Of a stretch of DNA of 15,157 bases, positions 5,940-10,053 are shown piece after piece. A program made the translations under genes and the position numbers. The notes beneath the pieces were generated by a model. It ran no database searches and had not been told where the DNA came from. It saw only the letters and a list, made by a program, of their open reading frames with translations. Source of the DNA: a virus (lineage: Duplodnaviria > Heunggongvirae > Uroviricota > Caudoviricetes); IMG/VR virus record IMGVR_UViG_2648501466_000031, positions 1 to 15,157 of that record; one strand, 5' to 3'. Each line of letters opens with the position of its first letter. Position 1 is the first letter of the stretch.

Positions 5940-6977
5940 TTAACGCTTATCCGCCACCAGTTTGAGCGCGTGTTCCAGCACGTTAATGTCAGCACCCGCT
6001 TTATGGGCATTTTCACTTAAATAACGCCGCCACTGCCGCGCGCCAGGAATACCCTGGAACAAACCCAGCATATGCCGGGTAATATGGCCGAGATACGTCC
6101 CCTGGCTGAGTTCACGCTCAATGTACGGATACATGGCGCGCACTACCGCCACCGGATCGGCATCGGTATCCGAGGAACCAAAGATCTCCCGGTCTACCGC
6201 CGCCAGAATACCCGGATTCTGATACGCCTCGCGCCCGACCATCACGCCATCCATATGTTGCAGGTGTGCTTTGGCCTCTTCCAGCGACTTGATACCACCG
6301 TTAATCGACATTGTCAGATGCGGAAAGTCACGCTTCAGTTGATACACACGCGGATAATCGAGCGGCGGGATTTCACGGTTTTCTTTCGGGCTTAACCCCG
6401 AAAGCCAGGCTTTACGTGCGTGGATGATAAACATCTCACACTCGCCTTTGCCGGAAACAGTGTTGATGAAATCGCAGAGAAATTCATAGCTGTCCTGGTC
6501 ATCGATGCCAATACGCGTTTTCACCGTCACTGGAATCGACACCACATCGCGCATCGCTTTCACACAGTCGGCAACCAGCTGCGCATTACCCATCAGACAC
6601 GCACCAAACATGCCGTTCTGCACCCGGTCAGACGGGCAGCCGACATTCAGGTTGATCTCATCATATCCACGCGCTTCTGCCAGCTTCGCACACTGTGCCA
6701 GCGCCGCCGGATCGCTACCGCCGAGTTGCAACGCTACCGGATGTTCTTCTTCACTGTACGCCAGGTAATCACCTTTACCGTGAATAATCGCCCCTGTGGT
6801 CACCATTTCGGTATACAGCAACGTATTGCGGGAAAGCAGACGCAAGAAATAGCGGCAATGTCTGTCCGTCCAGTCGAGCATAGGAGCAATGCTAAACCGA
6901 GAATTCCAGTAAACACCAGTTTTTTCAGGCATCACGCTGGTTTGATTAATTTTTTGTGTTTCATGATTATCGTGCAT
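5940..6977 (-). CDS. dusA: tRNA-dihydrouridine synthase A, 345 aa as drawn; 5' end probably supplied by the adjacent prophage
   Basis: [17 protein letters not shown]… and the Dus catalytic region ([15 protein letters not shown]); the first ~12 codons (6941-6977) are ~24% GC versus ~45-55% for the rest; no Shine-Dalgarno seen at either M1 or M16, so the start is uncertain. Confidence 0.88.
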
Positions 6978-7010
6978 TTTTGAACATTTCAGGCTATTTT
7001 TCTCGCGTTA

Positions 7011-7046
7011 GGTTCCCGCACAGGTTCCCACGTTTTATGGGAACCC
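7011..7046. promoter_or_regulatory. GGTTCCC repeat cluster in the int 5' region: direct copy 7011-7017 plus inverted repeat GGTTCCCA-N7-TGGGAACC (7024-7046)
   Basis: Read directly; sits 20-55 nt upstream of the int ATG (7066) in the dusA-int divergent region; candidate operator or recombinase/RDF binding sites. Confidence 0.35.
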
Positions 7047-7065
7047 GAAATAACGAGGTCGTGTA

Positions 7066-8163
7066 ATGGCATACTATAACATAGAGAAACGACTAAAATC
7101 CGATGGCACACCACGCTATCGCTGTAATGTGATTATCAAAGAAAAAGGTGTTATCACTTACAGGGAAAGTAAAACATTCCCTAAACATGCTCATGCCAAA
7201 ACATGGGGCACACAGAAAGTGATGGAATTAGATCTATATGGCATTCCATCATCAAATGCAGTTGACGGACTTACAGTCCGTGACTTACTACACAAATATT
7301 TAAATGACCCAAATGCCGGAGGTAAAGCAGGCCGTACTAAAAGATATGTGCTGGAACTGCTTATGGATAGTGACGTCTCCGCGCTCAAACTATCTGAACT
7401 GACAGAAAATGACGTAATTGAACATTGCAGGCTAAGAAACAACGCTGGTGCAGGTCCAGCTACAGTTAGCCACGATGTTAGTTATCTTGGCAGTGTTCTG
7501 GATGCTGCCAAACCTGTATATGGAATTAATTACACATCAAACCCAGCAAAAGCCGCTCGTCCATATCTACTTAAACTTGGTTTAATTGGTAAATCAAATC
7601 GTCGTAATCGTAGACCGGCATCTGATGAACTGGACATGCTCATTGAAGGTCTTCAACAACGATCTACACATAAATGCTCAAAAATTCCGTTCGTTGATAT
7701 CCTCAAATTTTCTGTGTGGTCATGTATGCGAATCGGTGAAGTATGCCGATTACGATGGGAGGATCTCGATCAGGAACAAAAATCCATACTCGTAAGAGAC
7801 AGGAAAGATCCACGTAAAAAGGAAGGCAACCATATGAAAGTAGCCTTGCTTGGGGAAGCCTGGGATATCGTCCAACGACAACCCAAAAAATCAGAATTCA
7901 TTTTTCCATATAACAGCACTTCTGTTACTGCGGGATTCCAGAGGGTAAGAAGCAAATTAGGTATTAAAGATCTGCGATACCATGATTTGCGTAGAGAAGG
8001 GGCAAGTCGCTTATTTGAGGCTGGTTTTAGTATTGAGGAAGTCGCCCAGGTTACAGGGCATCGTTCATTAAACGTGCTATGGCAGGTATATACCGAACTG
8101 TATCCGAAATCTTTACATAATCGTTTTGAAGAGCTCCAAAGGAGCAGAAATAAGGCCTCTTGA
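7066..8163 (+). CDS. int: Phage tyrosine integrase (site-specific recombinase), likely dusA-associated integrase type, 365 aa
   Basis: Catalytic signature: box I R (CMRIGEVCRLRWEDL), HDLRR (H-x-x-R), GHRS, and tyrosine in WQVYTEL; position directly abutting and divergent from the dusA 5' end. Confidence 0.88.
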   Translation: MAYYNIEKRLKSDGTPRYRCNVIIKEKGVITYRESKTFPKHAHAKTWGTQKVMELDLYGIPSSNAVDGLTVRDLLHKYLNDPNAGGKAGRTKRYVLELLMDSDVSALKLSELTENDVIEHCRLRNNAGAGPATVSHDVSYLGSVLDAAKPVYGINYTSNPAKAARPYLLKLGLIGKSNRRNRRPASDELDMLIEGLQQRSTHKCSKIPFVDILKFSVWSCMRIGEVCRLRWEDLDQEQKSILVRDRKDPRKKEGNHMKVALLGEAWDIVQRQPKKSEFIFPYNSTSVTAGFQRVRSKLGIKDLRYHDLRREGASRLFEAGFSIEEVAQVTGHRSLNVLWQVYTELYPKSLHNRFEELQRSRNKAS

Positions 8164-8211
8164 CACTGTTTATCTATACAGTTAAAAATAATACTGTATA
8201 CAAACACAGTA
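8164..8211 (+). promoter_or_regulatory. Two tandem LexA (SOS) boxes upstream of the dinI-like gene
   Basis: Box 1 at 8164-8183 CACTGTttatctatACAGTT; box 2 at 8192-8211 TACTGTatacaaacACAGTA (perfect CTGT-N8-ACAG with TA flanks); RBS AGAGGGA and ATG at 8225 follow. Confidence 0.75.
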
Positions 8212-8224
8212 TAGAGGGACTTTT

Positions 8225-8473
8225 ATGCGTATTGAAATCTGCATAGCCAAAGAAAAAATGACTAAAATGCCAACCGGTGCTGTGGATGCGTTAAAGGAAG
8301 AATTAACCCGACGCATCAGTAAACGTTATGACGATGTAGAGGTGATCGTAAAAGCCACCAGCAACGATGGCCTTTCTGTTACACGCACCGCAGATAAGGA
8401 TTCTGCAAAAACTTTTGTTCAGGAGACTCTGAAAGATACCTGGGAATCTGCTGACGAGTGGTTTGTTCACTAA
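8225..8473 (+). CDS. dinI: DinI-family DNA-damage-inducible protein (RecA modulator), 82 aa
   Basis: [11 protein letters not shown]…[16 protein letters not shown]…LSV…[17 protein letters not shown] aligns along its length with E. coli DinI (MRIEVTIAK…GAIDAL…LQETWESADDWFV). Confidence 0.88.
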
Positions 8474-8652
8474 TTAACACGTAAAATCGGTAACGGCTGG
8501 AAATCATTCAATACTCGCACTATCGAAAGTTCGCCAGCCAGCCGTGGCACGTTCTTGCATACGACGTGCTACGGTTTCATTTATCTCCCGAAACTCCATT
8601 TGGATTTATCCGGTGCGCCGTAAAACCCCGTCCTTCAGGGCGTGGAGGATGT

Positions 8653-8736
8653 CAACTGGACGCACTGGAGCTGGTCGATACTTCCGGTGCGCCAGATATT
8701 GAATGGCCTACGCCTCCGGCAGTTCAGGCCAGATGA
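8653..8736 (+). pseudogene. Relic 3' end of a second, convergent tail-fibre-assembly gene (tfa-prime); only the C-terminal ~25 codons are recognisable
   Basis: Plus-strand frame at 8653-8733 reads QLDALELVDTSGAPDIEWPTPPAVQAR then TGA (8734-8736), matching the conserved Tfa C-terminal motif (VDTSTAPDIEWP); the upstream frame degenerates, with a stop at 8491; overlaps the minus-strand tfa 3' end by 29 bp. Confidence 0.45.
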
Positions 8737-9298
8737 CATCCGGCGCGGTGCTGGTATCTGTTGCCTGCACCGCCTTAATGTAGCCAATCCAGGCAATCAG
8801 GCTGGCTTTGTCATCGCCACTGATAATGCCTAACTGCAGTTCCGTTTGCCACAGGCTGATTTTTGAATTTGCGGCGTTCAGAAGATTTGTTTTCTGTTGC
8901 TCGGCTTCGGCCACGTTCGCCGAGTGCTGTTTATCGCTATCTGTAGCCCATTTGTCATATGGCGTAGATGGTGCTGTGGTGGTGGTGCCTTCCGGGTATT
9001 CTCCCAACCGTGAAACTGTCACATGCTTTCCAGTTTCCGTGCTGTAAACGGTTTCGCCGCGATGGTCTGCAACGTATTCCCAACCGGTCAAATCAGCCGT
9101 CCGGCAAACAGCAAAGCCGTCCTTTTTGCTGATTGGCGCATCCACGCACGAATTGCCTGGAACACCAACGCCAACGGGAAGATATTCAACAGCTAAACCG
9201 ATATATTCACGCGTCACGCCATCATAATTATAAACGGTGATATATCCGTCTTCCGTGGCGAAACCGTTTTCATCTAATGAAATTTCTTTTGCGGTCAT
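8708..9298 (-). CDS. tfa: Tail fibre assembly protein (Tfa / Mu U-like chaperone), 196 aa
   Basis: C-terminus …IAWIGYIKAVQATDTSTAPDVIWPELPEA is typical of the lambda Tfa / Mu U family; start overlaps the stop of the upstream fibre gene (TAATG). Confidence 0.85.
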   Translation of the reverse strand: MTAKEISLDENGFATEDGYITVYNYDGVTREYIGLAVEYLPVGVGVPGNSCVDAPISKKDGFAVCRTADLTGWEYVADHRGETVYSTETGKHVTVSRLGEYPEGTTTTAPSTPYDKWATDSDKQHSANVAEAEQQKTNLLNAANSKISLWQTELQLGIISGDDKASLIAWIGYIKAVQATDTSTAPDVIWPELPEA

Positions 9299-10053
9299 TA
9301 TACTGCCCTTACAATGTAGTTGAATGCGAGGTTGCGCGGGCGAGTTTCAGCACCTGTTGAACCATTCGCCTTTAAGTAAACCCAACCAGAGCCATTAAAA
9401 GTGGTTGCATTAATCATATATTTAATCGGAATCATGTCAGAGTCAGGGGTATCGCCCAGCCTGTCCCTGTAAGCGGTATCTGAACTGTATGCCATCGCTA
9501 GATCATGAGTATGCTGCTGTACTGATTGGCTCTGACCAGTTAAAACAACGCGCCCACTATCAACCCCGCGCCCATCATCCCAGCCACGGATAAATTCACC
9601 GCGCAAATCAGGCAATTTTAACGCTGGATAAACTTTTGCCAGCTCCGGGTATTCTTCAGCAGAAAAAGGCGCACCGTTGCATTTAATCCAGCCTGTTGGC
9701 GGTGTGGCTGAAGGCCACGGAACAGGTACACCAACGGGTAACGCTGAGCCTTCTCCCAAACCAAGGTTTTCGAGAGCCGTTTGCACAGTGCCATCCGATT
9801 TGATATCGCCAAACGGATTCTTGCGGCTTAACAGCAGCGCACGAAGTGCGGTAAGCAGCTGGTCATGCCGCCCTTTCTCCAGGCTGGCACCGGAGGCCTC
9901 CACCACGCTACAAAGTTCTTCCTGCAACATGTCAAAGTAGTCATCATCCAGATCGGTGGCAGGTGTGCCGGTCTGGGGGTTACCACGGGTAAAACCGTTC
10001 TTACCCGCGCCGAACTTATCCTTCTGCGCGGTTTTCGTGTCTATACGATGCAT
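9298..10053 (-). CDS. Short tail fibre protein with phage tail-collar domain (Mu S-like), 251 aa
   Basis: N-terminal fibre-anchor region followed by a collar-type motif ([22 protein letters not shown]…[17 protein letters not shown]); positioned between the gp48-like gene and tfa. Confidence 0.78.

Follow-up and report, generated by a model that had tools for sequence, protein, structure and literature searches.

What does a temperate phage gain from a small dinI-like gene placed between its integrase gene and its tail-fibre genes, and to which of its neighbours do the two LexA-type boxes in front of that gene belong? The original prediction for this locus proposed an SOS-induced, phage-encoded RecA modulator at the edge of a prophage, able to feed back on RecA coprotease activity and thereby on prophage induction or SOS mutagenesis. 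We analysed the whole 15,157-bp stretch of DNA in which the locus lies (hereafter the window) together with homologous loci from phages and bacterial genomes. The reading that we favour, at odds of roughly three in four, is that the locus represents a self-contained accessory cassette at the end of a temperate phage genome, with a predicted LexA-controlled sigma-70 promoter, a DinI-family gene and a putative hairpin terminator. Feedback of the product on RecA and on induction is plausible.

The host part of the window is enterobacterial chromosome, in which tyrB, alr, dnaB, qorA, pspG and dusA are followed by the prophage (NCBIfam assignments). The prophage is e14/SfV-like and carries the dinI-like cassette at its dusA-side end (Table 1). 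Integration into the 5' end of dusA is a known signature of elements with dusA-targeting integrases (Farrugia et al. 2015, PMC4482086); here int lies beside the junction, and the dusA 5' end has been replaced by that of the element. Window positions 6874-7200, of which about 104 nt belong to the dusA 5' end, share 99% identity with the free phage SKA5, and this phage-derived end together with int puts the dinI-like gene at the left edge of a dusA-integrated prophage, as had been proposed. The int-dinI pair is common to the window prophage, mEp460 and SKA5, and at least 80% of a 1.75-kb query for the pair is covered in 706 of 5,426 complete Escherichia coli genomes. Genes for tail-fibre assembly, the tail fibre and the Mu-type baseplate proteins gp48, gp47, gp46, gp45, gp44 and gp43 (Pfam) occupy the strand opposite to the dinI-like gene, whose 3' side in the window consists of a hairpin, then a deletion scar, then the convergent tail-fibre assembly gene.

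Table 1. Positions of the features discussed, numbered from the first nucleotide of the window.
Feature	Position	Strand	Basis
dusA	5940-6977	minus	NCBIfam
Left prophage end: phage-derived dusA 5' end and int upstream region; attL near 6874	6874-7065		SKA5 identity, NCBIfam
Tyrosine integrase (int), dusA-targeting type	7066-8163	+	Pfam Phage_integrase, E = 1.1e-20; adjoins dusA
-35 hexamer TTGACA, overlapping the int stop codon; left border of cassette	8160-8165	+	Promoter scan, alignment of contexts
Predicted LexA box 1, core CTGT-N8-ACAG at 8166-8181, in the -35/-10 spacer	8164-8183		Sequence motif
-10 hexamer AAAAAT	8184-8189	+	Promoter scan
Predicted LexA box 2, TACTGTATACAAACACAGTA, core at 8194-8209, over the expected transcription start	8192-8211		Sequence motif
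Shine-Dalgarno sequence AGAGGGA, 5 nt before the ATG (8225)	8213-8219	+	Read from sequence
dinI-like gene, 82 amino acids	8225-8473	+	Pfam DinI, PHROG 189
Conserved 3'UTR element: GGCUGG/CCAGCC stem around a 21-nt core	8481-8539	+	Cross-locus conservation
14-bp GC-rich hairpin (8540-8576) and weak T-tract; probable terminator, right border of cassette	8540-8585	+	Folding, alignment

Promoter, operators and DinI-like product

The best sigma-70 match of the region in a promoter scan (10 of 12 hexamer positions) consists of TTGACA and AAAAAT separated by an 18-bp spacer, and given where these hexamers lie, box 1 occupies the spacer and the expected transcription start falls within box 2, so that the two boxes bracket the -10 hexamer of a near-consensus promoter. 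Both boxes, which had been described as two CTGT-N8-ACAG sequences upstream of a DinI homologue, are present with perfect cores and lie 28 bp apart, start to start. The core of box 1 is CTGTTTATCTATACAG and its 20-mer CACTGTTTATCTATACAGTT, while box 2 takes the form TACTGT-N8-ACAGTA. By our own count, box 1 matches the consensus TACTGTATATATATACAGTA (also given as taCTGtatatatataCAGta) at 16 and box 2 at 17 of 20 positions, and the functional box of K-12 dinI, ACCTGTATAAATAACCAGTA, matches the same 20-mer at 15; box strength here means matches to this consensus, not the heterology index of the Lewis matrix.

CTGT-N8-ACAG occurs exactly twice in the window, both times at this promoter, against an expectation of 0.16, and only 2 of 200 shuffled sequences contained two or more copies. 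When the 20-mer consensus was searched with up to three mismatches, box 2 was the sole match in the window and none of 200 shuffles contained any. The shuffles, together with the conservation described below, rule out an origin of the boxes by chance. The layout of the promoter is such that LexA should repress it, and a LexA dimer at either box would be predicted to exclude RNA polymerase.

Identification of the gene product as a DinI homologue was confirmed by profile searches. The protein matches Pfam DinI (PF06183) over positions 1-63 of the 63-position profile with 70.9 bits (cut-off 24.2; E = 1.1e-19), and also matches PHROG 189, 'RecA filament binding protein DinI' (E = 5.7e-31). With K-12 DinI it shares 46% identity from end to end, and K-12 DinI (PDB 1GHH, 7YWA) is its sole real match among solved structures. 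It is a single-domain protein of about 80 amino acids, the usual build of the family, and the acidic residues of its C-terminal helix (E67, D71, E74, D77 and E78) align with E65, E69, E72, D75 and D76 of DinI; the helix ends in a WESAD(D/E)WF motif, which does not vary among 15 members of the family. The acidic C-terminal helix of DinI reportedly contacts RecA. Since the DinI fold signature and this helix are retained, the product is expected to bind RecA filaments like E. coli DinI. It scored 73 bits against the cut-off of 111 for the chromosomal DinI equivalog NF007893 (NCBIfam), and is therefore regarded as a paralogue of chromosomal DinI; the RefSeq name is 'DinI-like family protein'. Among the most divergent loci, DNA identity of the gene is 69-75% and identity at third codon positions 39-52%, a sign of purifying selection on the gene.

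Cassette borders and operator conservation

Conservation of the operators was assessed in 213 dinI-like loci from IMG/VR, GTDB genomes and GenBank phages, which reduced to 48 distinct 100-nt upstream sequences. Searches with a single protein, or with an alignment headed by the window protein, returned near-identical copies only; one scan of genome contigs contributed four loci, and divergent loci were reached through queries with divergent homologues. Both boxes are kept in 46 of the 48 upstream variants (at most one mismatch in the eight defined bases), with a spacing of 26-29 bp that is mostly 28 bp, and this holds even for loci whose proteins share no more than about 60-70% identity. In the 31 variants of common register, change is almost absent from the half-sites (CTGT, ACAG) and from the -10 stretch TTAAAAATAA but free in the N8 interiors, at the final position of the -35 hexamer and between the -10 hexamer and box 2. 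Invariant half-sites around variable interiors form the pattern that would be expected of selection for LexA binding, and operator conservation exceeds background, as is looked for in members of an SOS regulon. In divergent prophage variants, box 1 is CTGTATAAATAACCAG and so matches the K-12 dinI box core in full; the prophage promoter is therefore homologous to the host dinI promoter and has acquired a second box.

The extent of the conserved unit was delimited by aligning six contexts: the window, mEp460, SKA5, an Stx2a phage, 2H10 and CP-1639. Homology between them starts exactly at TTGACA and ends just past the hairpin, about 100 nt after the dinI stop codon. What adjoins the unit upstream differs: a dusA-type int in the window, mEp460 and SKA5, ssrA in CP-1639, an attachment-site duplication in the Stx2a phage, a different integrase in opposite orientation in 2H10 and, in VT1-Sakai, the yehV junction. 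The borders are sharp in at least five phage contexts, and in every context the cassette has the attachment site on one side and, on the other, the tail-fibre genes, towards which it reads. With its own promoter, a terminator-like end and sharp borders between unrelated flanks, the unit has the make-up of a phage 'moron', as judged from sequence.

These borders also settle to which neighbour the boxes belong. The int stop codon is a TGA at 8161-8163 and box 1 begins 3 bp past it, so the observation that the boxes directly follow int holds as a statement of position; LexA boxes are moreover palindromic, and one could imagine that they act on int, as a roadblock or through an antisense RNA into the gene, and so tie excision to the SOS response. 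Yet the boxes lie downstream of int, the promoter scan found no minus-strand promoter-like site in 7900-8900, and the same promoter-operator unit precedes dinI beside ssrA, yehV, an attachment site and an integrase of opposite orientation. Because the cassette begins at the -35 hexamer whatever adjoins it upstream, the boxes are tied to dinI and not to int, and an action on int is the least probable of the explanations considered here.

A further explanation looks downstream, where the dinI-like gene could be the first of a Gifsy-type antirepressor operon (dinI, antirepressor, irsA) whose boxes trigger induction. Gene order and regulation in Gifsy-1 to Gifsy-3 fit such a model (PMC3121763), and the YkgJ-like gene that follows the cassette in VT1-Sakai, like ykgJ itself in K-12, indicates that read-through operons exist. 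At the window locus, however, the explanation is largely refuted and we consider it very improbable. The hairpin, the deletion scar and the convergent tail-fibre assembly gene follow dinI directly; we found no conserved open reading frame 3' of dinI, and the downstream GTG-start frames (52 and 56 amino acids) cross the cassette border into non-homologous DNA and therefore could not be conserved between contexts. The interval of about 130 nt between dinI and the ykgJ-like gene is too short for a 70-residue antirepressor. Nor would an antirepressor be needed with a repressor of the SKA5 kind: SKA5, which shares the int-dinI module and the tail genes, encodes a CI protein composed of a helix-turn-helix domain and a Peptidase_S24 domain, a self-cleaving type that we take from this relative for the window prophage because the prophage's own immunity region lies outside the window.

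The conserved 3' untranslated element

The stretch from 8481 to 8576 is more conserved than the dinI-like gene that precedes it. It begins with the stem-and-core element, in which a 6-bp GGCUGG/CCAGCC stem (arms 8495-8500 and 8534-8539) encloses an invariant 21-nt core, CATTCAATACTCGCACTATCG (8505-8525), and ends with the GC-rich hairpin. Loci that agree at only 39-52% of dinI third codon positions still share 90-100% identity in the core, which is difficult to account for unless the sequence itself is under selection.

Folding agrees with a structured transcript end. The 115-nt 3'UTR is predicted to fold at -34.6 kcal/mol (z = -3.8), better than all 200 shuffled sequences. When the 61 variants were folded singly, nearly all contained the hairpin, its stem built from many different complementary sequences, with a median of -19 kcal/mol. 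Folding of single variants was used because RNAalifold missed this terminal hairpin, indels having misaligned its 3' arm; RNAalifold recovered the short upstream stem alone, with one compensatory pair and several disruptions. The T-tract past the hairpin depends on context and is weak in the window (TTTCATTTAT), which makes the efficiency of termination there uncertain.

The element also occurs apart from dinI. In lambda it lies at 24,169-24,256, between ea31 and ea47; in the HK97-like phages HK106 and HK542 it lies between attP and the tail-fibre genes; and in K-12 it is found upstream of ykgJ at NC_000913 304,246-304,334, after a decayed dinI pseudogene. Of 5,426 complete E. coli genomes, 5,241 (97%) contain the element, and we found no description of it.

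Coding explanations for this conservation were rejected. In-frame coding past the dinI TAA (49 sense codons, 8474-8620) would overrun the cassette border and displays no synonymous bias. A minus-strand frame ending in '...GWRTFDSASIE*' is, as we read the alignment, interrupted by TGA in the commonest variant through a CGA/TGA polymorphism, which makes the 'capsid protein' pseudogene that PGAP sometimes annotates over the element look spurious. The overlap between element and tail-fibre gene in HK542 is only 4 nt. Known RNAs fared no better: no Rfam family matched the element on the plus strand; CssrB (RF02799) matched the hairpin alone, on the minus strand and far below threshold; HnrS is restricted to EHEC/EPEC (PMC13502914); and EcsR2 flanks ykgJ on the opposite side (PMC4350180). 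No dinI entry was found in the supplements of Tree et al. 2014.

Part of what selection maintains in the cassette may therefore be an RNA rather than a protein, with 8481-8576 acting as a small RNA or as a cis element of stability or termination. The slow divergence of the core relative to dinI, the strength of the fold, the pairing retained in the hairpin through many different stem sequences, and the stand-alone copies in lambda, HK106, HK542 and upstream of K-12 ykgJ all speak for it, as does the precedent of DinR, which derives from a LexA-controlled dinI mRNA (PMC10907235). Several observations temper this, namely the lack of a plus-strand Rfam match, the sparse covariation of the upstream stem and stand-alone copies without an obvious promoter of their own. 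Pairing was examined with the dinI start region alone and gave no convincing target; the core pairs with the dinI translation start at -19.2 kcal/mol against -12.6 +/- 2.9 kcal/mol for shuffles, a marginal result (p ~0.02, uncorrected) among several ideas that were tried. The same conservation could also be due to a DNA site for protein binding or recombination, or to a terminator that works in both directions where the cassette and the tail-fibre genes converge. We hold the RNA explanation, in this general form, to be a tentative one, on the unlikely side.

A more specific form of it is somewhat less likely again. It would make the 3'UTR (8481-8576), not dinI, the part under strongest constraint, and would have it be an undescribed regulatory RNA of lambdoid prophages, produced after damage from the LexA-controlled dinI transcript. 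Such an RNA could work in trans, as a small RNA or as a sponge for a core small RNA, or in cis, on mRNA stability or read-through, and the proposal may also extend to the copies of lambda and of HK97-like phages and to the one that precedes ykgJ in almost every E. coli. With DinR as precedent, an SOS-linked regulatory RNA is a reasonable hypothesis, and a role at the DNA level or as a terminator of the convergent junction is equally possible.

Proposed mechanism and comparison with known systems

Under the favoured reading of a LexA-controlled dinI cassette, LexA dimers would occupy both operators in an undamaged lysogen, exclude RNA polymerase and keep the gene tightly off, as the promoter anatomy and the regulation of homologues suggest. 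DNA damage would activate RecA and lead LexA to cleave itself; because both boxes are near consensus, the promoter would probably open only at strong depletion of LexA, and so late. From what is known of the family, the DinI-like product would then bind RecA filaments, stabilise them and damp some coprotease reactions, UmuD cleavage above all. In a phage with a RecA-dependent S24 CI, this might, speculatively, tune induction or limit SOS mutagenesis during phage replication. The boxes over the promoter, their family-wide conservation and the LexA-controlled homologues described below all argue for the SOS control that was originally predicted; the consequence drawn from it, feedback on RecA, is unsupported in the form in which it was put.

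LexA-controlled prophage dinI cassettes are already known and annotated in GenBank (mEp460, VT1-Sakai), and with hundreds of sequenced E. coli genomes, as well as named phages, carrying the window cassette, the finding itself is of little weight. The 3'UTR element, as a candidate SOS-linked regulatory RNA, is the sole part of the cassette that might repay further work.

[quoted passage not shown] 2011, PMC3121763) and are induced 4.6- to 23-fold by nalidixic acid, with a box 19 bp from the ATG (PMC8072944). As in the window, a prophage dinI homologue stands first behind a LexA-box promoter in an accessory region of a lambdoid prophage, but the Gifsy operons have one reported box and a downstream antirepressor that drives induction, whereas the window has two boxes, no antirepressor frame and a hairpin. 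Non-polar deletion of the dinI homologues in Gifsy-1 and in Gifsy-3 left induction unchanged (PMC3121763). The Gifsy repressors are inactivated by antirepressors and not by RecA-stimulated cleavage, so this null result is limited to phages with uncleaved repressors. With a self-cleaving S24 CI of the SKA5 type, by contrast, a RecA modulator becomes plausible, and a phage with such a repressor would be the right system in which to look for an effect of a prophage DinI on induction or on UmuD-dependent mutagenesis.

Other phages combine LexA control with DinI-like sequences in different ways. Tum of coliphage 186 and the split tum genes of PSP3 and Fels-2 are LexA-repressed and include a DinI-like part (PMC3121763); there the DinI-like half is fused to, or lies beside, an antirepressor half, whereas the window gene is a stand-alone DinI domain. 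The din-like gene of the linear plasmid prophage PhiKO2 is reported as LexA-regulated (as cited in PMC7556043), and both it and p60 of the Serratia phage OS31 are described with a near-consensus LexA box about 14 bp upstream and in an orientation opposite to the tail-fibre genes (PMC7556043). By these descriptions, PhiKO2 and OS31 are phages of other types with a single reported box, their two proteins being about 60% identical to each other, and they share with the window the orientation relative to the tail-fibre genes. In CFT073, a dinI-like locus changed alongside sulA, umuD, recN and dinI in an evolved strain (PMC2817434).

Two chromosomal systems bear on the ends of the cassette. K-12 dinI (b1061) resembles the prophage gene in having a LexA box that overlaps its promoter and in the conserved acidic C-terminal helix of its product; it differs in having one good box against the two better ones of the prophage, and the 3'UTRs are unrelated. 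DinR of Klebsiella is a small RNA processed from a LexA-controlled dinI mRNA and pairs with ftsZ mRNA (PMC10907235); compared by description, it is chromosomal and Klebsiella-specific, and its parent dinI mRNA, with a 3' end that functions separately, serves as a model for the conserved 3'UTR of the cassette.

The nearest relatives of the cassette itself are mEp460_021 (JQ182728), with 97% DNA identity, and VT1-Sakai H0001 (AP000400), with 89.7%. Both share with the window the TTGACA promoter, the two boxes, the 82-residue protein and the 3'UTR element. The mEp460 record places a 'promoter' feature on the module, and that of VT1-Sakai, besides a 'putative promoter', a 'putative SOS box' to which 'LexA protein' is said to bind; only the promoter-proximal box, the counterpart of box 2 in the window, is marked there as an SOS box, box 1 lying inside the 'promoter' feature. 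On the 3' side, VT1-Sakai has a YkgJ-like (CxxCxxCC) open reading frame where the window has the deletion scar, and in mEp460, as in the window, the cassette stands directly behind the same dusA-type integrase.

The element 3' of the dinI-like gene

A non-coding element that is more highly conserved than the dinI-like gene itself lies immediately 3' of the gene's stop codon, and consists of an invariant core enclosed by a short stem and, 3' of these, a hairpin (see table). Copies without dinI are found in lambda, HK106 and HK542, and the element is also present, again without dinI, in 97% of complete E. coli genomes. An Rfam search with its plus strand returned no family match, and we found no published description of it. 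On the minus strand, a weak match to CssrB, a chromosome-encoded Shigella sRNA, is limited to the hairpin and scores 32 bits where the gathering score is 76 (E = 1e-4); this suggests that the hairpin may also terminate transcripts arriving from the tail-fibre side.

In E. coli D53-1, the NCBI pipeline places on the strand opposite to the element a partial, frameshifted pseudogene named 'capsid protein', and in further genomes the same place is labelled 'capsid protein' or 'nucleocapsid protein'; this labelling looks like an annotation artefact spreading through RefSeq.

Features in the window and their counterparts elsewhere
Feature	Position	Remark
dusA 5' end (first ~104 nt)	window 6874-6977	
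3'UTR element	window 8481-8576	
Invariant core	window 8505-8525	21 nt
Hairpin	within window 8481-8576	14 bp
CssrB match	window 8543-8606	minus strand
Apparent scar of a lost invertible segment	window 8579-8800 and 9551-9764	
Element copy in lambda	24,169-24,256	
Element in E. coli D53-1 (L216)	21471-21558	counterpart of window 8471-8558
dinI-like pseudogene, E. coli K-12 (L215)	NC_000913, about 304,190-304,420	minus strand

Tail-fibre and dusA flanks

In related prophages, namely SKA5 and the majority of the best E. coli matches, a Pin-type invertase and alternative ends of tail-fibre and assembly genes lie between dinI and the tail-fibre genes. The window lacks this invertase but retains pieces whose match to SKA5 is inverted, and two stretches here have the appearance of a scar left by a lost invertible tail-fibre segment. 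On the other flank, the 5' end of dusA is 99% identical to free phage SKA5, annotated at the matching place with a small 'tRNA-dihydrouridine' ORF, and is phage-derived; the prophage thus brings its own substitute for the start of the gene that it interrupts.

Relation to the host chromosome

In the upstream regions of divergent prophage dinI variants (among the collected loci L001-L213), box 1 reads CTGTATAAATAACCAG, the same as the LexA box core of the chromosomal K-12 dinI (L214), and the TATATTCAAC that follows box 1 is likewise common to these variants and the K-12 promoter. The prophage promoter therefore looks as if it was derived from that of the host dinI, with some 13 bp (TTAAAAATAACTG) giving rise to a new -10 and the second box.

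Upstream of ykgJ in K-12 lies a decayed dinI-like pseudogene whose 3' half is still recognisable and whose promoter and 5' half are lost; the same conserved 3'UTR element and then ykgJ follow it. This order parallels that of dinI, element and YkgJ-like ORF in phage VT1-Sakai, and ykgJ therefore seems to be what is left of an ancient prophage cassette, now fixed in E. coli.
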